IMG/VR virus record: IMGVR_UViG_3300015245_000040
Span: 1-62,875 of that record
Source of the DNA: a virus
Taxonomy: Duplodnaviria; Caudoviricetes
Reading direction: 5' to 3' (one strand)
Length of the DNA: 62,875 bases
This document shows, one piece after another, positions 968 through 39,779 of the stretch. Below the pieces are notes generated by a model. That model did no database searches. It worked only from the letters and a program-made list of their open reading frames with translations, and was not told where the DNA came from. The position numbers and the translations under genes were made by a program. Positions within the stretch are counted from its first letter, which is position 1; each line of letters starts with the position of its first letter.

Positions 968-1705
968 TTATACCATCATCTGACGCGATCCAACGCGTGT
1001 GCCAATTGATGAAAGAGTTCTGCGGAATACAACAGTGGATCCACTGCTAGGATCTATGTAATGGGCTACCTGCCGCGTATCACTACCATATAAGCTACCT
1101 GAATTGTCCTGTGTAGCCCCCGTCCAGGAAATAGAAGCAATGCTACTCAAATTGTATATATTGGTTACGACTACGACGCATCCACTAGTTGTTACATCCA
1201 AGCTCAAATTTGCCGGGCTTGCCGGTGGTGTCGTACCAAATTGCGCCGTTGAGAACGTATCAATTGCATTCCCGGCAATAGCAGCCGTATAAACCCAAAA
1301 GGTACAATCGAAAGGTGACGCGGGACCTGAGAACGTGATTGTGGCCGTTGTCCCCGCTGCCACATCGGCATAGAAAATTCCGGAATAGCATGAATTCCCG
1401 TTACCGTCGTTTGCACCTGTGACTTCACCAACCTTAGTCGCGGATATACCCGCAATTGTCATCGATCCAGTGACTGCCGTAGTCCCGCTCTGGATCATAG
1501 AGACGGCAACTATCACCCGCCTGCTAGCCCCAGCGGTCCCTATAGAAACACCTGTGGCAGACATACCGCTACCAGCTTCAGTGCGGCCTATATAAGTAAG
1601 GGAAGGTGATGGACCGCCGCCGCCATTGAAGCTCGCAGCAACACCCGTAAAATCTACGGGACTGCCGAATGTTCCATATCCAAACTGAAGGGTATGGGTC
1701 GCCAC
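968..1705 (-). CDS. Putative tail/virion beta-rich protein
   Basis: 245-aa Gly/Ser/Thr-rich ORF in late operon; similar in style to 35438..36364. Confidence 0.55.
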   Translation of the reverse strand: MATHTLQFGYGTFGSPVDFTGVAASFNGGGGPSPSLTYIGRTEAGSGMSATGVSIGTAGASRRVIVAVSMIQSGTTAVTGSMTIAGISATKVGEVTGANDGNGNSCYSGIFYADVAAGTTATITFSGPASPFDCTFWVYTAAIAGNAIDTFSTAQFGTTPPASPANLSLDVTTSGCVVVVTNIYNLSSIASISWTGATQDNSGSLYGSDTRQVAHYIDPSSGSTVVFRRTLSSIGTRVGSRQMMV

Positions 1706-1720
1706 TTTACGTTTCGTCCC

Positions 1721-2092
1721 CTATTTGAAACTTCGTCTGGCACAAACAGTAACAGTTATTTGTTCTGTAGTATCACCAGAAGCTATAAACGGTCTCATCC
1801 ATGAGGTCACTTCAGTTATCTGATGAATACCAGGGGCAGTCATTGCGATAACATTACTAAATGGGTCTGTGAGATTATAATAATTCCCACTAGTTGTTGA
1901 TATCGCATTATTTGATCCCTGAATATTGACTACGGTCCCAACACCAAAAGTCCCATCGCATTGAATAGACCTATCAACAATATCACCTCTTGATATAGGC
2001 TTAAACGTATCGCCAAATTTGGCGGGACCCCATTGAATGATATGCAGATTATTCTCATCAAAGACTGATATATTTGGGGAAATAAGAGCCAT
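1721..2092 (-). CDS. Hypothetical (probable virion) protein
   Basis: 123-aa ORF tightly packed in operon. Confidence 0.6.
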   Translation of the reverse strand: MALISPNISVFDENNLHIIQWGPAKFGDTFKPISRGDIVDRSIQCDGTFGVGTVVNIQGSNNAISTTSGNYYNLTDPFSNVIAMTAPGIHQITEVTSWMRPFIASGDTTEQITVTVCARRSFK

Positions 2093-2100
2093 GTTAAATT

Positions 2101-2631
2101 CTAACCCTGTAATAGGTTAGCAAAATCCAGTATAGCCTGTTCCCGTTGAACAACAGATTCCCTTTTACCTTTCAGAACAATACTTAATTCCGCAAGTTCT
2201 TCTTCCTTTAAAGCAAGTTGGTTCTGTTTTTGCTTAGCTTCTTTTATACTGACATCTAAATCATGATTCTTTTCACTTAATATTTGTTGTTTATCTCTAT
2301 ATTCTTGTTCAAGTTCTTTGTGTTCTTCATCAAGTTGACTTAATTTCTCATTATAAGTCTTTATTTGTTGATTAAGTTGCCCACTTAATATGTCTAAATC
2401 CTGATGTCTTTCATCTAATTGTTGTTCACGTACATCATGATCATTCTGTTTCTGTTTTAAATCATCTAAAACCTTTAATGTATCAGCCTTTTGCTTTTTA
2501 TAATCCTCAGAAGCACGTGCATGCGCATTCACTGCCTCTTTATGAGCAGCGATGACAGACTGTGCTTTTGCAGTGTCAGCAAGGAAATCAATTAGATTCT
2601 GCTGGCGGCGTGTGCTCATCATCGCTGGCAT
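2101..2631 (-). CDS. Coiled-coil protein
   Basis: 176-aa E/K/Q/L-rich heptad pattern. Confidence 0.65.
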   Translation of the reverse strand: MPAMMSTRRQQNLIDFLADTAKAQSVIAAHKEAVNAHARASEDYKKQKADTLKVLDDLKQKQNDHDVREQQLDERHQDLDILSGQLNQQIKTYNEKLSQLDEEHKELEQEYRDKQQILSEKNHDLDVSIKEAKQKQNQLALKEEELAELSIVLKGKRESVVQREQAILDFANLLQG

Positions 2632-2986
2632 GTGTTTCTTCCATAACAGGGGATGTTTCTTCTACTTCAGGAAGCAATTCCGGAGCTAATCCAATTACAG
2701 CGACGCGGTGCCCAGCGTGTACACCATAAAATAAACGTTCCCCAGGTTCTATATGATGATATTCAGGGTCAGCAACAGGGTTTTCACCGAAAGAAATTGC
2801 ACAATCTGCTTCCGTTCGTATACAAATGAAGTTCGTATAAGATGGGAAAGGCCCACTGGCTCTAGATTCATGAGTAATTTCTACATAAGCCTCAGCCAAA
2901 GGGGGTGCCATAGGAGCACCCACAGGCTGATTCGTCGAATCTCGAGCCATATCTCTCCAGCACGTTATATACAACCTAGATGACAT
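2588..2986 (-). CDS. Hypothetical phage protein
   Basis: 132-aa ORF, operon context. Confidence 0.65.
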   Translation of the reverse strand: MSSRLYITCWRDMARDSTNQPVGAPMAPPLAEAYVEITHESRASGPFPSYTNFICIRTEADCAISFGENPVADPEYHHIEPGERLFYGVHAGHRVAVIGLAPELLPEVEETSPVMEETHASDDEHTPPAESN

Positions 2987-3004
2987 TTATTAACCCCTTA
3001 ATTA

Positions 3005-3778
3005 TCATTTTGAGTTGTATTCTGTAATTAAGATACAACCATTACCTCCAGATCCGCCTGTGGCAGTAGCTGCTGTAACACCTTCAGATTCACCACCAGA
3101 ACCACCACCCCCACAAGCAGTACCAGCGGTACCATTAACAGCACCCGCAGTAGCATCTACACCAGCAGCACCACCACCCCAAGGACCTCCCGCCCCGTAT
3201 CCAGATGGAGCATCTGCTGAATTAACAGTAGCACTAAACCCAGCCCCTCCTGCCGTACCAGAAATCTTAAAATCACCTGTGCCAGAACTTCCAACACCAC
3301 CAGCGCCACCAGCGCCACCAGTATTAGCTACTCCACTACCGCCACCTGATCCACCCACTGCTACACAAAGAGTTCCAAGAGACGTGTTATTTCCAGATGT
3401 GCCAGGATTAGCACCTGTAGCACCACCATTAGCAGCCGCAGTATTAGTGGTAGCTTGAGATCCCCCTATCTGAGCAGCAGTGAGCCTTACCCGCGAATAA
3501 CTACCTGCACCACCACCACCACCTGAAGAGGCGCCAGCCGTAACAGGTGCAGCGGCCCCACCACCACCACCACCTTGCCCTACACATTCTACAATAGCAA
3601 AGAGCAGGTTGGCATTCGGGGTATAAGTACTGTTGGCACTAGTCGTAAAATATTGAGTAGTAACACTTGGTGTTGTACTGGCAACGCTCTGATTAGCGAA
3701 TTCACTTCTGGCTAAATAAGAAGTTGTTATTACACCAATACTAACAGTGCTAAGAAAGATTAAGATATACTTCTTCAT
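3005..3778 (-). CDS. Glycine-rich protein (virion/tail-fibre associated)
   Basis: VECVGQGGGGGG ... GGNGCILITEY glycine-rich domain pattern; hydrophobic N-terminus. Confidence 0.7.
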   Translation of the reverse strand: MKKYILIFLSTVSIGVITTSYLARSEFANQSVASTTPSVTTQYFTTSANSTYTPNANLLFAIVECVGQGGGGGGAAAPVTAGASSGGGGGAGSYSRVRLTAAQIGGSQATTNTAAANGGATGANPGTSGNNTSLGTLCVAVGGSGGGSGVANTGGAGGAGGVGSSGTGDFKISGTAGGAGFSATVNSADAPSGYGAGGPWGGGAAGVDATAGAVNGTAGTACGGGGSGGESEGVTAATATGGSGGNGCILITEYNSK

Positions 3779-4215
3779 GGGGCTAATACCTCAAATGAGA
3801 ACGTACAATCAACAGCATAAGTCAATGTAAATGGCCCTGTAGATGAACAGACAGCTACAAACCCTGTCTTAGTTGGAATACGACTAGCCCCATTAAACAT
3901 TAAAAAATCCGTGACCCCTAAAGAACTTATGGCTCCAATTTGGTACCACTTTAGAACACATGGCCTAGAAGCTGCTGCGTTAGTACATCCTGTAATAGCT
4001 GCCCCACCACCAGTTGGAGCAGTAGTCGCATCGAATAACATAACCCATCTTGATGCTGCATTTGTATTATTAATCTGTCCCCCATAAATATTGCATGAAG
4101 AAGCACAGAATACATGACTTGATTCTACAGCCGATGCTGTAGTCTGTGTCTGAGCGTGAACTTGAGTAGTTCCCAGAGCTAATGCCACCAGGGTAATAGA
4201 TAATTTCTTCATCAT
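3775..4215 (-). CDS. Signal-peptide-bearing hypothetical protein
   Basis: MMKKLSITLVALALGTTQVHA signal-like N-terminus; several Cys. Confidence 0.65.
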   Translation of the reverse strand: MMKKLSITLVALALGTTQVHAQTQTTASAVESSHVFCASSCNIYGGQINNTNAASRWVMLFDATTAPTGGGAAITGCTNAAASRPCVLKWYQIGAISSLGVTDFLMFNGASRIPTKTGFVAVCSSTGPFTLTYAVDCTFSFEVLAP

Positions 4216-4219
4216 AGCC

Positions 4220-4435
4220 TCATAAGTGAAATGCGTTCGTGTGTATGCCAGCCAAACCTAATAATATCTGAGCAACATAGATAACAATTATTACAACTAT
4301 AATAACAAACAGAATTCTGATGATTGTTCTGAATGGCTCACCTAATGGAACTACTTTAACTAGCTCTTGTAGCCCCCAGAGGATGACCCCTGCAATGATA
4401 CAGAAAAAGATTAAACCAATAAGAGTTCCTAGCAT
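4220..4435 (-). CDS. Small two-TM membrane protein (holin-like candidate)
   Basis: Two hydrophobic segments; AGGAG RBS upstream. Confidence 0.6.
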   Translation of the reverse strand: MLGTLIGLIFFCIIAGVILWGLQELVKVVPLGEPFRTIIRILFVIIVVIIVIYVAQILLGLAGIHTNAFHL

Positions 4436-4480
4436 TGGTCTATCTCCTTCCTAACATTTGTAATACAACTGTTGTTTACC

Positions 4481-4963
4481 TTATGGTAAGCTTCCCCCTG
4501 TTAATGCTATTGCATTTGGGAAGTCCATTATAAAAGAACTTGGTTGTCCCAATGTTGGTTGTGATTCTGTAGAATATTGAATATTCCAAGTACCATCAGA
4601 TCCATATAGAGCACATGTAAAAGCACTGGCAGTTATAGTGACTACTCTACCCCCAAGATTAATAGTTGATACAACTGTTTTGAATTGTGTATAATCATAA
4701 AAAATTGCTAGGGAATCAGAATTCACACTAGGAATCCTAGAACCAATTGGAAATTGTATTGCATTTGGAAAATGCGCTGTTACTACTTCTTGAGTAAACG
4801 TACCACCAACAGTATATATAATTATATCTAATTCTGGATTAATGTTTATTACCCAATATCCTGGTACATAGAAAATATAATTCTGAGATCCCAATAAATC
4901 TACGATAGATACAAAATCATCGTAATTACTGGGTTGTAACAATCTTCTTGCATTAAGACCCAT
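4481..4963 (-). CDS. Hypothetical protein
   Basis: 160-aa ORF coupled to upstream gene. Confidence 0.55.
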   Translation of the reverse strand: MGLNARRLLQPSNYDDFVSIVDLLGSQNYIFYVPGYWVININPELDIIIYTVGGTFTQEVVTAHFPNAIQFPIGSRIPSVNSDSLAIFYDYTQFKTVVSTINLGGRVVTITASAFTCALYGSDGTWNIQYSTESQPTLGQPSSFIMDFPNAIALTGGSLP

Positions 4964-5586
4964 TATTCATCCCCTAACTTTGGTATTGCTTCAAATATCC
5001 AACTTGTTATAGGAAATGCTTTAACCGACACATAAGTAGTATTTGCTTTAATAACCCCCTTATATTCTTTTAATAAGGCAAATACCTCAGAACTTGAATA
5101 AGTCCTAGTTCTAGTGTTTCCCCTTTTTATATCTTCAGGTATTTTGCTGGCTAAAACCCGACCAAACAAACGTCCTTCTGGACGTAACCATTTTTTGATT
5201 CTATCAAATAGAATACTAGATTGTTCTAATTCAAGGCAATCAAATATTCCAATTCCTATAATACAATCAAAAGAATTTTCTTTTAAATCTAAATCTAATA
5301 TATCAGAACATATGATTTTAACTAAATGCTTCTTTTCATCAATAATATTGTGATATAATGTATCGCAGGCCACTTTTGAGATATCAACTGCTGTGACTTG
5401 GAACCCTTTATTGACAAGAAATATAGAACTAGACCCGGTTCCACATCCTAAATCAAGAAATTTTAAACCTGAGCTTCCCCAATAATGTTCAGCCATAAAG
5501 GCTAGAAATTCCATTCCTGGGATTGTACCCCAGGAAATATTCCTATGAATTTCATCCCATAAACTTGCTTGTAGCATTACATACAC
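4963..5586 (-). CDS. Class I SAM-dependent methyltransferase
   Basis: FLDLGCGTG motif I, VTAVDIS, SFDCII, LRPEGR. Confidence 0.85.
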   Translation of the reverse strand: MYVMLQASLWDEIHRNISWGTIPGMEFLAFMAEHYWGSSGLKFLDLGCGTGSSSIFLVNKGFQVTAVDISKVACDTLYHNIIDEKKHLVKIICSDILDLDLKENSFDCIIGIGIFDCLELEQSSILFDRIKKWLRPEGRLFGRVLASKIPEDIKRGNTRTRTYSSSEVFALLKEYKGVIKANTTYVSVKAFPITSWIFEAIPKLGDE

Positions 5587-5636
5587 CTAATTATCAAGCT
5601 TTATTATCCACTTCATAGCTTCATTTATAGGTAAAT

Positions 5637-5897
5637 TTATCTACGTCCTAACATTTGTAATAAAGTCGGTAAATTTGCGCTTGATAAAGTATTCAAGGAT
5701 TGGGTCTGCCCTGGTGTAAACCCTACTGAATTAGGTCTAACATGGGTAGGCTTCATAAAACTAGGCTGAGGTAGACCTGCCCCTATAGCCTGAAACCCAT
5801 GCTGTGCAGCCTGTAGCGGGCTAGACGGGGCCTGATAAGCAGGGAATAACCCCTGTAAAGTAGCTACAGGGTTAGGGGGTTGATCGGGCTGTGCCAT
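5637..5897 (-). CDS. Pro/Gln-rich hypothetical protein
   Basis: 86-aa ORF. Confidence 0.55.
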   Translation of the reverse strand: MAQPDQPPNPVATLQGLFPAYQAPSSPLQAAQHGFQAIGAGLPQPSFMKPTHVRPNSVGFTPGQTQSLNTLSSANLPTLLQMLGRR

Positions 5898-5905
5898 TTG
5901 ATCCG

Positions 5906-5990
5906 TGTGACCGTCCGGGATTAGGGTTTAACACCTATTTCGTAATCTATGGAAGCACCTGGAGGGGTAGAGTTACGCCGGACGGTCACA
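5906..5990. repeat. Perfect 13-bp inverted repeat enclosing 59 nt
   Basis: TGTGACCGTCCGG (5906-5918) / CCGGACGGTCACA (5978-5990). Confidence 0.85.
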
Positions 5991-6004
5991 GCCCTATCAT
6001 AATC

Positions 6005-6523
6005 CTACTTAATGATATCTGCTGCTAAGTACTTAGATCCATCTTCTAAATACCTCATAACTCTATAATCCTGTGCTGGGGGCTTGGAACCGGTTAAGTA
6101 CCAGCGCCCTGCTTTATCCTCAATCTTACCTAAAGTTTTAAGCCGGTTTATGGCCAACCTAATAGATTTCTCAGTCAAAGCTGGCTTAACAGGTAGAGCT
6201 ATTACCTTATTTGTAATATCAACAGTTCTTAACCCTGAATTATCAGTGATATAAGACATGATACTATCATTCATGATCCTATCAACTTCAGTTAAGACAT
6301 AAGACTTACCTGAAACAGGTTCTACAGGATCATTTAACTTCAGAACCCTATTTATTTCTTCTTTAGCGCATTCTACCCCGTCATCAAAGGCACGCTTATA
6401 ATAAACGTCAGCCATGACCTCTTCTAATTCTGAAATTGCTTTGGCCAATTCAACAGTTAGATCACTGACTTTCTTCTTAGACTTCATAAGACGTGGGTTT
6501 TTTTCGTCTGAAAGTACATTCAT
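6005..6523 (-). CDS. Putative DNA-binding protein (C-terminal winged-helix-like)
   Basis: SIRLAINRLKTLGKIEDKAGRWYL helix-wing pattern. Confidence 0.55.
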   Translation of the reverse strand: MNVLSDEKNPRLMKSKKKVSDLTVELAKAISELEEVMADVYYKRAFDDGVECAKEEINRVLKLNDPVEPVSGKSYVLTEVDRIMNDSIMSYITDNSGLRTVDITNKVIALPVKPALTEKSIRLAINRLKTLGKIEDKAGRWYLTGSKPPAQDYRVMRYLEDGSKYLAADIIK

Positions 6524-16238: not shown

Positions 16239-16568
16239 TTAGTTTAATCCATGTTTAGACGGCTTCTCATCTGGTTCCTCACCATCTAATTCATGTTCTT
16301 CAATCTCAAGCCAGTCACAAAGTTCTTTCCTTGAACTAAAGAATTGCCACATCATCTTATTTTCATCTTTTGGTGGGTTGGTTACATTTGTGATCTTCAT
16401 ATCAGCCACATTAACCACCACCATGACAGCCCCAGCACTTGGCTTAATTTCTATTAGATAAAAACCATTTCCTAAATTTACCTTTACACATCCATGTTGT
16501 GTATCTTCATCCCTGTGATTGAAAATCATAAACCACTTTCCAACCAAATCATCAGCCATTACATTCAA
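16239..16568 (-). CDS. Hypothetical protein
   Basis: 109-aa ORF; start may be ATG 16559. Confidence 0.6.
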   Translation of the reverse strand: MNVMADDLVGKWFMIFNHRDEDTQHGCVKVNLGNGFYLIEIKPSAGAVMVVVNVADMKITNVTNPPKDENKMMWQFFSSRKELCDWLEIEEHELDGEEPDEKPSKHGLN

Positions 16569-16622
16569 CCCTCATTGCCAATTCAAATATACCCAATAAT
16601 TATAGATAATTCAAACAAACTT

Positions 16623-16940
16623 GTTGCCTGCTCTCATTGAGCAAAGTATGTAAAGGGCAAGGCAATGCATGAAGGTAAACACCACAGAGACATGAAACCA
16701 TAGAAATAGCTCAGTTGGTAGAGCGCAAGTCTTGAGAACTTGATGGCGCAGGTTCAAATCCTGCTTTCATACAATCAGGGGCTAAGTCCCCTTCAAGGGT
16801 GCAAGGCTAAAGGTTCTAGGATGTAAGGTTTATATCCGGCAAGTGGGCTAGGGTTAAGCGTATAGACAGCGATCAAAATGACCTGGGATAAGTTTAGTAT
16901 CATGACAAAGTGGACTTCCCAGGCTTCTCATGCAGGTGAC
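16623..16940 (+). ncRNA. Putative structured ncRNA containing a tRNA-like domain (16700-16772)
   Basis: Closing stem GTTGCCTGC/GCAGGTGAC; internal hairpins; tRNA-like TAGCTCAGTTGGTAGAGC...GGTTCAAATCC with loop CT-TGA-GA, weak acceptor stem, no CCA. Confidence 0.55.
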
Positions 16941-16960
16941 CTTAACTAGGGGTAAGTAGA

Positions 16961-17482
16961 ATGCCTAAGATTATAGAAGCCATGAAGCGGATAAAGAGCA
17001 ACAAGGAAAAGATTGCTGATCTTCAGGCACGTATTGCTGAGGTATCAGCACACCTAAGCCATGAAACCCCTAAATACGGTACTCAGACCGAAACAACCGC
17101 TTCTATACGTGAATGGTCTCAAAGTATTCATGACACCATTCAGGAAAACATCAGACTGTTAACAGCTATTTCTAGAACTAATTTAGAAACAATGGCTACT
17201 ATCACTATTAATGATAGATCTGTTACCCAGTCTCTGGCTAGATGGATCTGGCGTAGGCGTGAGTATGCTGCACTGGACCTTATCACTTGGCAAAAGATGA
17301 CTGATCGTAATCTGAAAGAAGGAATGATGCCAAGTTCAACGGGCATTCCTCAGCCGGTTACTATAGTTAGGAACTATGATCCCAATGAACGGGATCGTAA
17401 AATTGCTGAATATAAGAGTGAAGCTCATGAAATTGATGCTACACTTGAAGTGATCAATGCGGTAACTGATCTGATAGAGTAA
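16961..17482 (+). CDS. Helical conserved hypothetical protein
   Basis: 173-aa ORF MPKIIEAMKRIK...EIDATLEVINAVTDLIE. Confidence 0.75.
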   Translation: MPKIIEAMKRIKSNKEKIADLQARIAEVSAHLSHETPKYGTQTETTASIREWSQSIHDTIQENIRLLTAISRTNLETMATITINDRSVTQSLARWIWRRREYAALDLITWQKMTDRNLKEGMMPSSTGIPQPVTIVRNYDPNERDRKIAEYKSEAHEIDATLEVINAVTDLIE

Positions 17483-17518
17483 GCCTTGTAAACATTGCTG
17501 GCGATGTAGCCGCCCTGT

Positions 17519-17596
17519 GCCCCATTAGCTCAAATTGGTAGAGCATTTCTTTTGTAAGGAAAAGGTTGCAGGTTCAAATCCATGCATGGGGCACCA
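17519..17596 (+). tRNA. tRNA-Thr(TGT)
   Basis: Cloverleaf GCCCCAT/ATGGGGC, loop TT-TGT-AA, GGTTCAAATC, encoded CCA. Confidence 0.85.
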
Positions 17597-18088
17597 ATGC
17601 TTTTATGTAAACAATGTGGGATAAAAGAAGCAAAAATACTGTTCTGCTCACGTCAATGTGCTGCAACGTTCAATAATCTCAAAAGGGGTGACAAAAATAG
17701 AAAAAATTGCCTTTGGTGCAATAATAAAACTTTAAATAAAATGTTTTGTTCCTATGAATGCACAAATTCATCCAAGAAATTTAGAAATAACGAAAAGTTT
17801 CTACAAGCATTAAAAGAAGGTTTTGTTATAGATGAAGATAAAATGAAAGAGTTGATCATTTTGACCAAAGGTAGGAAATGTCAAGTATGCAATTTAGATA
17901 CTTGGAATGGAAAACCTATACCACTTGAACTTGATCATATAGATGGAAATTCAGAAAATAGAATCCCTGAAAATTACAGAATAATATGTCCTAATTGCCA
18001 CGCGCAAACACCTACTTTTAAAGGAAAGAATCGGGGAAATGGCAGATATAAACGGGCAGAAAGATATCGACAAAATAAAAGTTTCTAA
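17597..18088 (+). CDS. HNH endonuclease with N-terminal Zn fingers
   Basis: CxxC/FCS repeats; LELDHIDGNSENRIPENYRIICPNCH; ATG immediately after the tRNA CCA. Confidence 0.9.
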   Translation: MLLCKQCGIKEAKILFCSRQCAATFNNLKRGDKNRKNCLWCNNKTLNKMFCSYECTNSSKKFRNNEKFLQALKEGFVIDEDKMKELIILTKGRKCQVCNLDTWNGKPIPLELDHIDGNSENRIPENYRIICPNCHAQTPTFKGKNRGNGRYKRAERYRQNKSF

Positions 18089-18122
18089 TCGCAGAGCCAT
18101 GTTCGATTCCTAGACAAGGCAC

Positions 18123-18197
18123 GGGCTGATAGTGATAATGGGAGCACACTGGTCCTGCAAACCGGAAGTCAGAGTTCGATCCTCTGTCAGTCCACCA
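18123..18197 (+). tRNA. tRNA-Ala(TGC)
   Basis: G3:U70 acceptor pair, loop CC-TGC-AA, CCA end. Confidence 0.85.
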
Positions 18198-18284
18198 ATT
18201 AAAGAAATTATAGAGCTGACTTTTCATAGAAGGATGAGCCGACGGCCTGTAGCTCAAGTGGTTAGAGTAATCACCTTAAAATAA

Positions 18285-18361
18285 AGTCCTGTAGCTCAAT
18301 CGGTTAGAGCAGACGGCATATAACCGCCAGGTTCTAGGTTCAAATCCTAGCAGGACTACCA
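18285..18361 (+). tRNA. tRNA-Ile(TAT)
   Basis: AGTCCTG/CAGGACT acceptor, loop CA-TAT-AA, CCA end. Confidence 0.8.
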
Positions 18362-18363
18362 AC

Positions 18364-18774
18364 ATGAAATTTTTCATATGTAACAATTGCAGTAAACACA
18401 TACCAATAAGTTATGGATCTTTTAATAAATACTGTTCTAGTAAATGTGATCAAGAATTCAGATTTAAAATAAGATATAATTTATGGATAAAAAATGAACT
18501 TATTGTTCCTGATTCATATGGGGCACGGGCATTAAAACGACTTGTATCATTTAGAGATGGATACAAATGTTCAGAATGCTCACTATCAGAATGGAGAGGT
18601 AAAAAACTATCACTTGAACTAGAGCATAAAGATGGAAATCATCAAAATAATGAGCCAGAAAATGTTTGTTTATTATGCCCTAACTGTCATAGTCAAACAC
18701 CTACTTTTAGGGGCAAAAACAAAGGTAAAGGTAGATCCTATTTTAGAAACAGATTTCATAAAAACAAAAATTAA
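18364..18774 (+). CDS. HNH endonuclease, paralog of 17597..18088
   Basis: LELEHKDGNHQNNEPENVCLLCPNCHSQTPTFRGKNKGKGR. Confidence 0.9.
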   Translation: MKFFICNNCSKHIPISYGSFNKYCSSKCDQEFRFKIRYNLWIKNELIVPDSYGARALKRLVSFRDGYKCSECSLSEWRGKKLSLELEHKDGNHQNNEPENVCLLCPNCHSQTPTFRGKNKGKGRSYFRNRFHKNKN

Positions 18775-18899
18775 GTATTATTTCAATTTCCAAACAAAAA
18801 CATAAAAATATTAGAATAGTTATATTTTATGGAATACACAAACACTAAGTGATAGATCTGGGTTCAATCCCCAGCAGACCAACCAGTAAAGAGGGCAAC

Positions 18900-19682
18900 A
18901 TGTCAGAAACTGAAGTATCAAACGACGCTGAATATGACTTCGTTGATAAGAGTTCATGGGGTCAGGGGGAATGGCTCAATGAGCCAGATAAAATAACTTG
19001 GACTGATCCTGAAACAGGCTATTCATGCATTGTCCTACGCGGTCCTGTAGGATCATTCTGTGGTTATGTTGGGGTACCTATCTATCACCCTGCTTATGGC
19101 CTAAGCTATAACGGATCTACTCAACATGATCATGATCAACGCAGTGATGCTTTTTTAAAAGCCCTTAGAAATAATGTTGATAAAAGTAAGCCTTTCCTTG
19201 ATCGTATTGGTCTTGATAAACTCCCTGAAACACCTGTGGTTCCAAATATCGGTGACAAAATTAGTGAAATTAGGGTCCATGGAGGTTTGACCTATTCAGG
19301 GGGACCTCATAAACCCACTAAGGAAATGTGGGAAAATTACAAATTACAGGCCTTTAGAAGTAGAATTGAAGCTGCAATGTTTCCTCATGGTGATTCGGCT
19401 GAATTTCTAAAGGAATGGGGACCATTTCTTGATGACTATGAAGCTTGGTCTAAGCAAGTAATCTTAAAAACTATTGGTTCAGAAAATTATGATGACGAAA
19501 ATTGGTACTTTGGCTTCGACTGTTCTCATCACCTTGACCTAAGCCCTAAGCTTGAAGCCACATTAAAATTGGTTGGTAGTTATTCATCACATACTCACTT
19601 GCGTGATGTCTATCGTAATATAAGTTACGTAAAAAAGGAAGTTGTGTCACTAGCCCAACAACTTAAACAATTGGCTCCGTAG
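18900..19682 (+). CDS. Conserved phage hypothetical protein
   Basis: FCGYVGVP, VHGGLTY and WYFGFDCSH motifs; GAGGGC RBS before ATG 18900. Confidence 0.8.
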   Translation: MSETEVSNDAEYDFVDKSSWGQGEWLNEPDKITWTDPETGYSCIVLRGPVGSFCGYVGVPIYHPAYGLSYNGSTQHDHDQRSDAFLKALRNNVDKSKPFLDRIGLDKLPETPVVPNIGDKISEIRVHGGLTYSGGPHKPTKEMWENYKLQAFRSRIEAAMFPHGDSAEFLKEWGPFLDDYEAWSKQVILKTIGSENYDDENWYFGFDCSHHLDLSPKLEATLKLVGSYSSHTHLRDVYRNISYVKKEVVSLAQQLKQLAP

Positions 19683-19746
19683 CTCAACTGGAAAGAGCAA
19701 CGAATTTCTAATTCGTAGGTTGAAAGTTCGAGTCTTTCCGGAGTCA
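19673..19746 (+). tRNA. tRNA-Arg(TCT)
   Basis: Cloverleaf; stem ACGAA/TTCGT, loop TT-TCT-AA. Confidence 0.88.
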
Positions 19747-19747
19747 C

Positions 19748-19821
19748 GGCGGGATGTCAGATTGGTTATGTAGGAAACTGCAAATTTCCCTAAGTGGGTT
19801 CGATTCCCTCTCTCGCCTCCA
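19748..19821 (+). tRNA. tRNA-Cys(GCA)
   Basis: GGAAA/TTTCC stem, loop CT-GCA-AA, U73, CCA. Confidence 0.8.
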
Positions 19822-19951
19822 TATGGTACGTGTAGCATAGTCTGGTTAATTCCCTCCCTGAAGTAAGGAATAAAATTCGTATGCAGCATATAAACGATTA
19901 TGAGTGTAATAAGGTTGAGATTAATTTATTTGACAGATGATAGTATTCTCA

Positions 19952-20026
19952 GGGCTTGTAGCTTAATCGGTCTAAAGCATACGACTTTTAATCGTAAGAT
20001 CCTGGGTTCAAATCCCTCCGTGTCCT
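19952..20026 (+). pseudogene. tRNA-Lys(TTT), probably degenerate
   Basis: Good D and anticodon arms (CT-TTT-AA) but mismatched T and acceptor stems. Confidence 0.6.
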
Positions 20027-21966
20027 CATAACAAATCACAATTCCCACTAACGCAAGATAACTCTTGACTACCTGTAGTCATATCTAGTTTCTCATAATC
20101 TTTCAGTTTAATCCAATCTATTTCCTGAGGAGTCTTATTTACCCATTCATTATATTGATCCTCAGTTAAATCAGCGAATGGAGCCTGCTGATAACTATGA
20201 TCTGAGAATGGAAGAAATGAAACTCCACTCATAAATTCAAAGTTATCATATATCCAACTACCTACCCTCATCCACTCATCTTCACGGACTGATACAGTCA
20301 CCGAAGGTTTATGTTCGGTCCAATAAAGTTGATATGATTTCCATATATCTAATTGTTTAACAGCACTAAAATCTTTCTTAAATAGGGCATTATCTGGACT
20401 TTTAAGGGGGAAGTAGAATACATAATTACTGTGATGCATTAAATCATCTTCATAGTAAAAACCTTGATCTATTAAAAGTTGTGAAACAGGGTCTTTCTTA
20501 TCATTTCTTACTGAACGTAGGTAAAAAGGAGAGTGCCTAGTATGGATACCAGAGGAGGTATTGTTAAGGGAACTGACAGTCCCTGAAGGCTTAACACAAG
20601 TAATCGCGGTTGCTTGCGGTATTCCAAACTTCTTACTCCATTCTAAATTGGTTTGAATGGCCCTCTTCCTTAACTTAGTTAATACTCCCTTTAAATGCTC
20701 AGTCCCTTGGGCACCTGATGTTATCACATTATCCATTATCCCTGTCATAGATACCCCTAACAACCTTTCATCCTCAAAGTTCTTTTTCCACGTCTTTGAT
20801 AAGAATTTAAAATTTGTCAGGGTAGATTGGATAGTTCCTAGAATAGTTGCAATTTTTACTTTTTCTAACAATGTATCAATAGTGTCATCATCCCTGATAA
20901 TAATTTCAGTTAGATTACACCCTTGTTTATCCCTTAGTATTATCTCAGAGCATGGATTACAGCCCCATTCATAATTAGGGTCCCGTAACCTGCAGTCATC
21001 ACCAAAGTGTTTCTTTCTAAAGTCATTAGATCGGTTAATTATATTCTTAGAAGCCCAGCGTGAAAATATGCCCCGTTCACCTGATTTGGAATCATACAAT
21101 GACTTCCATTCGGCGATAAAAGTATCCATTGGAGGAACTTTATCAGTATAAACTGCTGAATTATTAGCTATTGATCTATAAGATGTTGTTGACCACCACT
21201 GACCCATCTTAGCATTACGCATTCTATCATCAGACAAGTTTGACAATGATATAAGGGCCGACCGTCTCACACCCCCGCTCACAACTACATTTCCTATCAT
21301 GCAACAAATATCATGACAGTCTAAGGATGTAAGTTTTTGCCCTCTGTTCTGTTTAAATTTTTCTATTACAAATTTGAATAACTGATCTAAAGGTGCTGGT
21401 CCACTTGCCCTCCCACCAAATATCCTCAATATAGCACCAGCAGGTCTTATCTTACTAAGATCATAATTTGGAATGTTACCCATATATAAAAGGCTGATAA
21501 GCTCATTCAGGGATTTAGCCCATCCCAACTTAGAATCAGAAACTACTATTGTAGTATCAGTTGGATATAATTCATCAGGAACATCAGGAAGATTATTAAT
21601 AAATTGCCTCTCAATACTAAAACCTACACCACAACCATTCATTAAGACATAAAGCATCTCACCAAATGCTTTAGGGCTATTTATAGAAAGATAGAGACAA
21701 TTATAGCCTCCTATATTGTCCCTTTCTAAGGCTAGACCAGCAGTCATCAGACATCGCATCGACGGCATAACTTGATAATTTAGAATAGCTGATTCTAAAT
21801 AACTCCTAGTTTCAGTGTCTAGAATATATCCACAATTTTCTTTCAAATGGACTTGAAAGAAGTCAAAATACCTTTTAATCGTTTCAGGCCACCTTTCCCG
21901 TCTTCCTTCCTCATGCAAGTAACGGGCGTACTTTGAGATATAAACATAGTCTGAGAAGGTAGACAT
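20026..21966 (-). CDS. nrdJ: Class II (adenosylcobalamin-dependent) ribonucleotide reductase
   Basis: MPSMR, GCGVGFS, GGRASGP, GGVRRSALI, NPCSEI, TCVKPSGT, C-terminal CxxxxC. Confidence 0.92.
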   Translation of the reverse strand: MSTFSDYVYISKYARYLHEEGRRERWPETIKRYFDFFQVHLKENCGYILDTETRSYLESAILNYQVMPSMRCLMTAGLALERDNIGGYNCLYLSINSPKAFGEMLYVLMNGCGVGFSIERQFINNLPDVPDELYPTDTTIVVSDSKLGWAKSLNELISLLYMGNIPNYDLSKIRPAGAILRIFGGRASGPAPLDQLFKFVIEKFKQNRGQKLTSLDCHDICCMIGNVVVSGGVRRSALISLSNLSDDRMRNAKMGQWWSTTSYRSIANNSAVYTDKVPPMDTFIAEWKSLYDSKSGERGIFSRWASKNIINRSNDFRKKHFGDDCRLRDPNYEWGCNPCSEIILRDKQGCNLTEIIIRDDDTIDTLLEKVKIATILGTIQSTLTNFKFLSKTWKKNFEDERLLGVSMTGIMDNVITSGAQGTEHLKGVLTKLRKRAIQTNLEWSKKFGIPQATAITCVKPSGTVSSLNNTSSGIHTRHSPFYLRSVRNDKKDPVSQLLIDQGFYYEDDLMHHSNYVFYFPLKSPDNALFKKDFSAVKQLDIWKSYQLYWTEHKPSVTVSVREDEWMRVGSWIYDNFEFMSGVSFLPFSDHSYQQAPFADLTEDQYNEWVNKTPQEIDWIKLKDYEKLDMTTGSQELSCVSGNCDLL

Positions 21967-39377: not shown

Positions 39378-39779
39378 ATGCCTGACATCCTTGCCATCCT
39401 TGTACAAGCCCGCGCCCTCATTGCCCGACCTGAGAACTGGTGCATCAAAGTTTTCAATCAAATTAAGTTCGGAGCTTATCCATCATATACAAGTTATGTG
39501 TCTTATTGTTCACGTGGTGCCATATTTGAGGTTCTGGGCATCAAAAACCCACTAGGGGACATGAAAGATGATAACCCCTACTGTTATGAACTTATCAAAC
39601 ATGTGCCTGATCCCTACCCCTTGGCAAGGGATGCTGGTGACAGTGTAGCACACTATAATAATAGTCACACGCATGCTGAAGTCCTACTGATATTTGATCA
39701 GGCTATCGCCCGGCTAAGGGCTGAAAAAGGTGTGGCTGAGTTGAAGAATACTATTTCAAGGATGCTTGAAACAGTATAG
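39378..39779 (+). CDS. Conserved hypothetical protein (DUF6197-like)
   Basis: L..ARALI...W...C..GAI...YN...THAEVL..FD.AI; related to 57691..58068. Confidence 0.65.
   Translation: MPDILAILVQARALIARPENWCIKVFNQIKFGAYPSYTSYVSYCSRGAIFEVLGIKNPLGDMKDDNPYCYELIKHVPDPYPLARDAGDSVAHYNNSHTHAEVLLIFDQAIARLRAEKGVAELKNTISRMLETV

Follow-up and report, generated by a model that had tools for sequence, protein, structure and literature searches.

An HNH nuclease and a whole isoacceptor within a phage tRNA-Ile gene: a probable intronless homing unit of the anticodon loop

In IMG/VR record IMGVR_UViG_3300015245_000040, a metagenome-assembled Caudoviricetes contig of 62,875 bp (estimated 69% complete, 42% G+C) whose full length is called the window here, a tRNA-Ile(TAT) gene is interrupted in its anticodon loop by a 567-bp insert (18279–18845) that holds an intact second tRNA-Ile(TAT) gene and an open reading frame (ORF) for an HNH endonuclease. 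We consider it probable that this insert is a free-standing homing-endonuclease unit, which enters anticodon loops by intronless homing and brings a linked replacement tRNA instead of relying on splicing. The observations that carry this reading are the anatomy of the insert and its precise junctions, the absence of a ribozyme, an integrase and a duplication, a second case in the same array, the tie of the nuclease family to tRNA genes and their isotypes, and the tRNA fragments and introns present at the same site in relatives.

The interrupted tRNA-Ile gene and its insert

All parts of the cassette lie on the plus strand. The 5' half of the interrupted gene (nucleotides (nt) 1–35 of the tRNA; 18243–18278) matches positions 2–35 of an Ile(TAT) hidden Markov model (HMM; E=5.5e-5) and is followed by a 6-nt spacer, read from the sequence, that forms the left end of the insert (18279–18284). 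The intact cargo tRNA-Ile(TAT) comes next (18285–18361; called by ARAGORN, and by Rfam at 59.7 bits), and 2 nt past its CCA begins the ATG of HNH endonuclease ORF 2 (HNH2; 18364–18774, 136 aa, PHROG HNH E=2.7e-23), whose product has a predicted N-terminal zinc ribbon and a zinc-bound HNH core. An A+T-rich non-coding tail of 71 nt, with no Rfam match at E≤10 and no terminator-like site (18775–18845), leads to the 3' half of the interrupted gene (nt 36 to CCA; 18846–18885; HMM positions 36–71, E=6.1e-4). This order of parts and their coordinates had been proposed in an earlier note made from the letters of the window alone, and both proved right to the base, as did its statement that the insert carries a whole isoacceptor, now identified by ARAGORN and Rfam as an intact tRNA-Ile(tat).

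The two halves read as one gene. Joined to each other, 18243–18278 and 18846–18885 give an ARAGORN tRNA call in all eight registers that produce a 7-nt loop. The sequence alone leaves the anticodon open between ACT, TCT, TAT and TAA, depending on the join register, and we read it as TAT because three independent results agree. A degenerate anticodon-arm motif, with the anticodon written as NNN, matches just once in IMG/VR viral contigs, and the gene that it matches is an intact tRNA-Ile(tat) whose arm is the same (L033:4656–4729; L numbers denote individual loci throughout). Identity of the rejoined gene to the annotated tRNA-Ile-TAT of Synechococcus phage B3 is 79%, as against 49–64% to the window's other isotypes. 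Finally, the Ile(TAT) HMM, which was built from 8 other phage tRNA-Ile(TAT) genes, matches both halves, and since the two matches abut at 35|36, the insert lies exactly between these nucleotides with nothing lost or duplicated. The 3' half (18846–18885) also has weak blastn matches to cyanophage tRNA-Ile genes. In the rejoined gene the anticodon stem pairs at 5/5 positions, the T stem at 5/5, the D stem at 4/4 (one G-T) and the acceptor stem at 5/7; the two C:A mismatches in the acceptor suggest that the interrupted tRNA-Ile is decaying.

Chance produces almost nothing comparable. When a 567-nt deletion was slid along 62,208 positions of the window, 13 junction-spanning tRNA calls fell at the true site (x=18271–18283) and only 4 weak calls elsewhere, near 39745–39766 and inside an ORF, while 0 of 60,000 random pairs of halves gave a tRNA call. 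The minimum-energy fold of the rejoined gene is a cloverleaf of ordinary energy (z=–0.55), and the intron mode of ARAGORN did not call the split tRNA-Ile gene. On the plus strand of the whole window, a generic tRNA HMM found only two partial matches outside intact tRNAs, both flanking the two cassettes. That the halves rejoin into one tRNA-Ile(TAT), as the earlier note held, is borne out by the ARAGORN call, by the HMM matches meeting at 35|36 and by the failure of chance pairs to do the same.

The insert has neither a ribozyme nor the marks of an integrase. Rfam intron families, group II as well as group I (Intron_gpI), had no match in 16500–20200 (E≤1) or in 17470–18900 (E≤10); the same search does detect introns of 50–62 bits in four other loci of the nuclease family (L048, L053, L193 and L201). 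Apart from tRNA and ORF the insert has only 79 nt, and the HNH2 ORF stands alone between the tRNA and the non-coding tail, not inside an intron or intein. The HNH ORF is the sole ORF of the insert matching any protein family, and the protein-family search found no recombinase among the insert's ORFs. The longest word common to both junctions is 4 nt, so there is no target-site duplication and no att-like repeat. These results uphold two claims made from the sequence, namely that an intron-less insert sits in the anticodon loop and that it differs from integrase elements, which duplicate only a tRNA end.

The cargo is a divergent isoacceptor. It aligns to the interrupted gene with 71% identity, and the 5' strand of its anticodon stem differs from that of the interrupted gene at 4 or 5 of 5 positions. 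Position 33 of its anticodon loop is A, and the anticodon stem contains an A28:C42 mismatch.

The array contains this design a second time, 760 bp upstream and again on the plus strand, as a tRNA-Thr(TGT) and an HNH ORF within a tRNA-Thr(TGT) relic. The 5' remnant (nt 1–36; 17483–17518) ends with the anticodon TGT and belongs to a decayed tRNA-Thr(TGT) of a class with a non-canonical D arm (HMM positions 1–36, E=2.9e-4); the class HMM was built from 10 non-canonical phage tRNA-Thr genes. An intact cargo tRNA-Thr(TGT) follows directly (17519–17596; ARAGORN; Rfam 59.7 bits), and the ATG of HNH endonuclease ORF 1 (HNH1; 17600–18088, 162 aa, PHROG HNH E=1e-23, family profile E=5e-43) lies 4 nt past its CCA. 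The 3' remnant of the same decayed gene (nt 37 to the 3' end; 18087–18122) overlaps the HNH1 stop codon and ends where a tRNA-Ala begins; class HMM positions 37–66 match it weakly at 18087–18115 (E=0.28), and positions 32–74 of the generic tRNA HMM match 18082–18122 (E=0.52). In the joined relic the acceptor stem pairs at 7/7 positions (3' strand 18114–18120), the D stem at 4/4, the anticodon stem at 2/5 and the T stem at 3/5, and the T-loop motif is present. By HMM, both insertions lie in the anticodon loop: between nt 35 and 36 in the Ile gene, at about 36|37 in the Thr gene. HNH1 and HNH2 are 40% identical, and a search of the whole window with the HNH family profile found exactly two members, each inside one cassette. 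In our reading the Thr unit records an earlier event of the same kind, now further decayed, in which a tRNA-Thr and an HNH gene entered the anticodon loop of a now dead tRNA-Thr with the same anticodon.

The nuclease family and its traces in other phage tRNA genes

HNH2 has 369 homologues at E≤1e-10, and IMG/VR alone contains more than 580 relatives. Ten columns (C69, C72, H88, G91, N100, C105, P106, N107, C108 and H109) are invariant among 38 aligned sequences and again in a second alignment of 30; both alignments are likewise invariant in the four Cys of the N-terminal ribbon and in the core of the HNH domain (two Cys pairs, His, Asn and His). Pfam places HNH1 and HNH2 below threshold (HNH_2 and HNH_3 at E=0.013), while 20 of the 38 aligned homologues match HNH_3 and 12 match HNH. 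An AlphaFold2 (AF2) model of HNH2 has a predicted local distance difference test score (pLDDT) of 86.5, and its top Foldseek matches in the PDB are HNH domains (Cap5, PacI, McrA, Cas9 HNH, ZRANB3 and I-HmuI), the best at E=0.045 and none at E≤0.001; a profile search of PDB sequences reached a best E of 0.012. Judged from these conserved residues and profiles, HNH1 and HNH2 are predicted members of the HNH (beta-beta-alpha-Me) endonucleases.

The family lives among tRNA genes. We collected the 80 best IMG/VR loci and then 41 further distinct loci, and a tRNA gene lies within 1.5 kb in 79/80 and 38/41 of them, respectively. In GenBank, family members are present in tRNA arrays of Gordonia and Enterococcus phages, and T5-like phages are among the matches listed. 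The ORFs start 0–15 nt past a tRNA CCA in many loci (L209:760–761, L040, L047, L110, L096) and frequently reach into the 5' end of the tRNA that follows (L038, L043, L050, L052). Such abutment suggests that they are co-transcribed with the tRNAs and that tRNA processing controls the nuclease. A total of 36 tRNA-Thr genes directly abut a family ORF on either side, and some Thr genes at these loci have no adjoining HNH ORF. The D arm is non-canonical in 29/36 of the ORF-adjacent Thr genes and in 7/16 of those elsewhere in the same loci (Fisher p=0.02, with kinship ignored).

A quick maximum-likelihood tree of 72 rows, which leaves out 10 of the 80 loci for being duplicates, short or interrupted, contains subclades with Shimodaira–Hasegawa-like approximate likelihood-ratio test (SH-aLRT) support of at least 95 that lie beside Lys, Gly or Asn genes (one row of the Asn clade has no abutting tRNA). 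Near-identical pairs lie beside Ala and Val genes, there are large Thr groups, and HNH1 and HNH2 sit on long unresolved branches. On this quick tree, HNH subclades appear to follow tRNA isotypes.

We also observed a class of phage tRNA-Thr with A8-A9 and an unusual D arm, which is usually directly beside an HNH ORF (L036:1417–1491, L043:1893–1964, L046:1893–1967, L050:1896–1966, L061:1831–1905, L064:2860–2935, L068:1319–1391, L076:930–1000, L082:1803–1874 and L112:1003–1075).

Across 20 loci, brute-force ARAGORN joins often paired unrelated intact tRNAs into chimeric calls, and because such joins are too permissive, HMM matches were used across loci instead. In the first 80 loci the generic tRNA HMM found 23 tRNA fragments, of which 8 abut an HNH unit, a position that makes up about 5% of the sequence (binomial p=1e-5); two of these 8 are exons of intron-containing tRNAs. 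The full pattern recurs in L209, where nt 1–27 of a tRNA are followed by 24 nt, a whole non-canonical tRNA-Thr(tgt), an HNH ORF starting 0 nt after the CCA, and nt 44–76 of the first tRNA; the acceptor strands of this split tRNA are complementary at 7/7 positions, and the anticodon arm of the target is deleted. In L087 a 5' part precedes a whole tRNA-Thr and the HNH ORF, and a very short 3' end follows them; L229 has a 5' part, a tRNA-Thr and the HNH ORF. In L046 and L214 the order differs: a 5' half broken after nt 34 is followed by the HNH ORF and then by a whole tRNA-Thr. The left ends of these two cassettes are homologous and the resident tRNA-Thr halves differ, and in each the leftover first anticodon base (T or A) agrees with the cargo anticodon (tgt or agt). 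Six further loci (L036, L064, L082, L097, L203 and L191) have a 3' fragment after the unit, and the one in L097 shares its acceptor strand with a whole tRNA-Glu that lies upstream.

The earlier note had called for a survey of the pattern half-tRNA, tRNA, HNH gene, half-tRNA with matching anticodons. The complete pattern was found in the Thr cassette next door and in L209; L087, L046 and L214 show it only in part. The anticodon match holds wherever it can be read, as Ile with Ile and Thr with Thr in the window and as T34 versus A34 in L046 and L214.

Two side observations concern such relics. In the window's Thr cassette the dead relic is in the non-canonical D-arm class and the whole cargo is canonical, which is the reverse of L046. 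In L045, three tRNA 3' fragments stand in a row (293–325, 469–515 and 630–673) upstream of a tRNA-Thr and HNH ORF; they may be successive scars or a small amplification.

Relatives of the nuclease are also associated with group I introns in tRNA anticodons. Such introns interrupt a tRNA-Asn(GTT) in L048 (1913–2113, Rfam 61.9 bits) and tRNA-Thr(TGT) genes in L053 (1000–1199, 62.2 bits), L193 (1919–2099, 54.5 bits) and L201 (1155–1349, 49.6 bits), the Intron_gpI gathering score being 50, and in all four the host tRNA directly adjoins a family HNH ORF. Read from the exons, the intron sites are at about 34|35 in Thr and at 36|37 in Asn, within two nt either way. In L101 (1203–2108), a tRNA is split by about 830 nt that hold an HNH ORF and a weak Intron_gpI match (1852–2047; 34.4 bits, E=3.2e-5). 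As a separate observation, the anticodon region across the L101 split is possibly TCA, which would read the UGA stop codon. According to the portion of PMC3984707 that deals with them, the phage introns known by 2014 were all in protein-coding genes and none in phage-encoded tRNA genes; the family loci also point to group I introns in phage-encoded tRNA genes.

These loci place one protein family in four layouts. Its ORF can lie within what seems to be an intron, next to an intron that is itself ORF-less, next to a tRNA that is uninterrupted and in many cases odd, or, together with a whole tRNA, inside a dead one. The breakpoints of the interrupted genes (after 34, 35|36 and about 36|37) coincide with the intron sites, and this coincidence indirectly suggests that enzymes of the family cut tRNA genes at the anticodon.

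Proposed mechanism, rival explanations and known systems

A model based on our data is that an enzyme of the HNH family would cut or nick the gene of one particular isoacceptor tRNA, within the anticodon or next to it, and that the break would be repaired from the nuclease-bearing genome, so that the nuclease gene is copied in together with a tightly linked tRNA gene. The linked tRNA would escape cutting, its anticodon stem being different, and would take over the job of the destroyed gene; we presume it to be immune because the 5' strand of its anticodon stem departs so far from that of the target. Since there is no ribozyme, nothing would be spliced: the interrupted gene would be lost and the spare tRNA would play the intron's role. 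The start of the ORF at the 3' end of a tRNA may in addition tie expression of the nuclease to tRNA processing. What we infer from these arrangements is where the enzyme would cut, that the cargo would be immune and functional, and that the unit may still be mobile today. More tentatively, the HNH family as a whole could target anticodon loops with two interchangeable lifestyles, either as a group I intron in a tRNA gene or as a ribozyme-free cleave-and-replace unit with an uncuttable isoacceptor.

Several observations weigh against a homing unit. Most of the array fragments (15/23) are not beside an HNH unit, and tRNA fragments must therefore also arise by other routes. The nearest non-self relatives of HNH2 are only 47–61% identical and are mostly beside tRNA-Thr, not tRNA-Ile, and the tree of isotype clades is a quick search with many open forks. 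In the Thr cassette the 3' remnant is weak when taken alone (E=0.28), and only 1 of 1350 simple joins was called a tRNA by ARAGORN, its anticodon being implausible. The cargo tRNA-Ile may itself be impaired, having A33 in place of the near-universal U33 and the A:C mismatch in its anticodon stem. Lastly, scans of viral, metagenome and genome sequences found no empty site, no second copy of the Ile cassette and no close phage relative: the exact 30-nt pattern of the 5' half and the cargo anticodon-arm pattern each had 0 matches in viral contigs, the target anticodon-arm motif had 0 matches in prokaryote genomes, and the 3'-end pattern had 44 matches in a metagenome scan, 0/44 of them tRNAs. The earlier note had asked for related phages with the uninterrupted allele; these scans gave no close relative, and an intact tRNA-Ile(tat) with the same anticodon arm is present in L033.

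The main rival is a one-off repair scar, in which a homing endonuclease or another break struck the resident tRNA and the damage was mended by illegitimate or microhomology-mediated copying of a segment, taken from a neighbour or a donor, that contains the tRNA and the HNH gene, the order being accidental and the cargo a co-converted flank. Some loci are as imprecise as this would predict, since L209 and L087 lack the target anticodon arm and L036, L064, L082, L097, L203 and L191 keep only a 3' fragment, and a second copy of the window's Ile cassette was not found in viral contigs. Rearrangements driven by the homing endonuclease SegB, moreover, use tRNA/segB microhomology, as part of PMC13096335 describes. 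We nevertheless regard a scar as unlikely: the Ile junctions are accurate to a single nucleotide, without loss or gain of sequence, the window has two like cassettes next to each other, and L046 and L214 break different residents at the same nucleotide with a homologous cassette end, which indicates a site-specific event. The insertion site in the anticodon, shared with the group I introns of L048, L053, L193 and L201, would also fit a degenerate mobile intron in which the HNH gene once lay in an anticodon-loop intron whose ribozyme was lost and which later gained the inner tRNA; the 830-nt insert of L101, with its HNH ORF and weak Intron_gpI match (34.4 bits), could be taken for a step on such a path. 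This history is quite improbable for the window, where no intron match was found even at E≤10, where the 79 nt outside tRNA and ORF are too few for a ribozyme core, and where the presence of an isoacceptor inside the insert of both cassettes would be left unexplained.

Two other accounts fare worse. The contig is metagenome-assembled and an estimated 69% complete, so a chimeric assembly, or an unrelated tRNA duplication and decay beside an HNH gene, has to be considered. An artefact or coincidence of this kind is very improbable. The boundaries of both halves and of the insert are exact and complement one another, neither the sliding deletion nor the random pairs showed a background, and independent contigs repeat the design that the window has twice. 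An identical HNH2 protein is in the family database, where its longest contig is given as 51,121 nt against the window's 62,875 nt. A working split tRNA, whose halves would be joined or paired as RNA in cis or in trans like split archaeal tRNA genes, draws on the cloverleaf that the halves form at minimum energy and on the ARAGORN call once they are joined. It is scarcely credible: the acceptor stem has two C:A mismatches, no ribozyme match was found, and the sister Thr relic is clearly decayed; the trailer/leader duplex (–6.4 kcal/mol) is no stronger than that of shuffles (mean –7.1, 56% of them as low). We also know of no protein-based tRNA splicing pathway in bacteria, which counts against a split tRNA. 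We therefore retain the homing unit with its replacement tRNA as the preferred explanation of the Ile cassette.

This unit resembles several known systems without coinciding with any of them. The GIY-YIG enzyme SegB of T4 recognises the T-psi-C motif of tRNA genes and drives its own inheritance along with that of neighbouring tRNA genes, as set out in part of PMC2330249, where F-TflI/II/IV are also cited as homing endonucleases within the T5 tRNA cluster; the relevant part of PMC13096335 describes SegB homologues as widely co-localised with tRNAs and able to amplify a tRNA gene. The window's nuclease gene likewise lies among phage tRNA genes with its ORF abutting a tRNA, and a passage of PMC2330249 proposes that tRNA processing limits expression of the tRNA-abutting SegB and T5 enzymes. 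Whereas SegB sits between intact tRNA genes and recognises T-psi-C, the window's enzyme is an HNH protein encoded inside a tRNA gene at the anticodon, and the interrupted gene is dead, with an isoacceptor packed directly upstream of the ORF. In having the anticodon region as both target and home, the unit is like the homing endonuclease of a tRNA-anticodon group I intron; it differs in that an intron restores its tRNA by self-splicing, while the insert has no ribozyme and carries a spare tRNA gene.

Collaborative homing, in which a free-standing endonuclease lies beside an ORF-less group I intron, is a known arrangement. F-CphI and psbA provide an example. Its layout is matched by the relatives in L048, L053, L193 and L201, in which the intron is in the anticodon of the adjacent tRNA. 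Common to collaborative homing and the window is that the nuclease's own genome has a disrupted or altered target; the difference is that the window's target is disrupted by the nuclease unit itself and that a second gene, not splicing, supplies the function. Fractured genes are a further parallel, in that a free-standing endonuclease gene lies between the halves of a split gene. There the homing endonuclease gene splits a protein gene and split inteins rejoin the halves, in the description given in part of PMC2677866. The halves of fractured genes are functional by protein trans-splicing, whereas those in the window are relics and a whole replacement is carried.

Integrative islands and prophages also enter tRNA genes, and like the unit described here they bring sequence that maintains tRNA function. 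They depend on a tyrosine or serine recombinase, and all that they duplicate, as an att repeat, is the 3' part of the tRNA. The window's insert has neither recombinase nor repeat, its entry point is between nt 35 and 36, and the tRNA that it carries is complete and shares only 71% identity with the target. A similar logic is that of synthetic cleave-and-rescue drives, engineered Cas9 systems in insects in which the nuclease is linked to a recoded, uncuttable rescue copy. The proposed unit would share this logic, destroying a needed resident gene and supplying a linked rescue, and the window would hold a putative natural, protein-guided phage version of it.

There is precedent for collaborative homing, for fractured genes and for homing endonucleases in the tRNA clusters of phages; a spliceless nuclease in a tRNA gene with a whole isoacceptor is apparently new. 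We found no description, within the coverage of the full-text literature (which leaves out subscription journals and supplements), of a nuclease inside a tRNA gene without a splicing element and carrying a whole isoacceptor. To our knowledge, homing endonucleases are thought to persist in important genes only by means of self-splicing introns or inteins, or else between genes. The locus suggests a third route, which is to enter the gene, kill it and bring a spare. If this were confirmed, it would explain the isoacceptor duplicates, the tRNA fragments and the tRNAs with unusual D arms or anticodon loops in phage arrays, and it would link free-standing nucleases, ORF-less introns and intron-encoded nucleases in one family at one target site, making steps of mobile-intron evolution testable. 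If the two lifestyles are indeed interchangeable, such elements would amount to a natural cleave-and-rescue drive and a major force on phage tRNA repertoires, pseudo-tRNA fragments and odd tRNAs.

The tRNA array and its phage context

ARAGORN and Rfam find seven intact tRNA genes in the array, which spans 16.7–20.0 kb on the plus strand. Across 38 ORFs, ATA makes up 34% of Ile codons and ACA 31% of Thr codons; because these codons are common, loss of tRNA-Ile or tRNA-Thr would plausibly be costly to the phage. A class II ribonucleotide reductase adjacent to the array has at most about 55% identity to that of any cultured phage. A blastn search of the array against GenBank phages gave short HNH and tRNA matches only, synteny through the class II ribonucleotide reductase gave a matching tRNA array in 0/15 loci, and among relatives of the downstream ORF (18900–19679) there were 4 pattern matches, 0 of them confirmed. 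Promoter and terminator scans found nothing exceeding shuffles. Between tRNA-Ser(tga) and the next ORF lie about 190 nt (16773–16960) with no ORF of at least 40 aa and no Rfam match at E≤1.

Two of the window's nine intact tRNAs do not have U33: the tRNA-Ala(tgc) at 18123–18197 has C33, and the cargo tRNA-Ile(tat) at 18285–18361 has A33. The remnant of the dead tRNA-Thr (17514–17518) likewise has C33. Loss of U33 in these three could be decay, or loop variation of the kind tied to escape from anticodon nucleases, for phage tRNAs with altered anticodon loops are linked to escape from host anticodon nucleases in part of PMC10264068. Because of that link, and because tRNA-Ala is also non-U33, the A33 of the cargo may be a feature rather than decay.

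The locus with the intact tRNA-Ile(tat) of the same arm, L033, holds 22 tRNA genes (1600–6258), including one with the anticodon CTA, which ARAGORN labels Pyl (amber-reading). An ORF for a GIY-YIG-type homing endonuclease lies on the minus strand of this array (2357–3013; PHROG E=4e-28).

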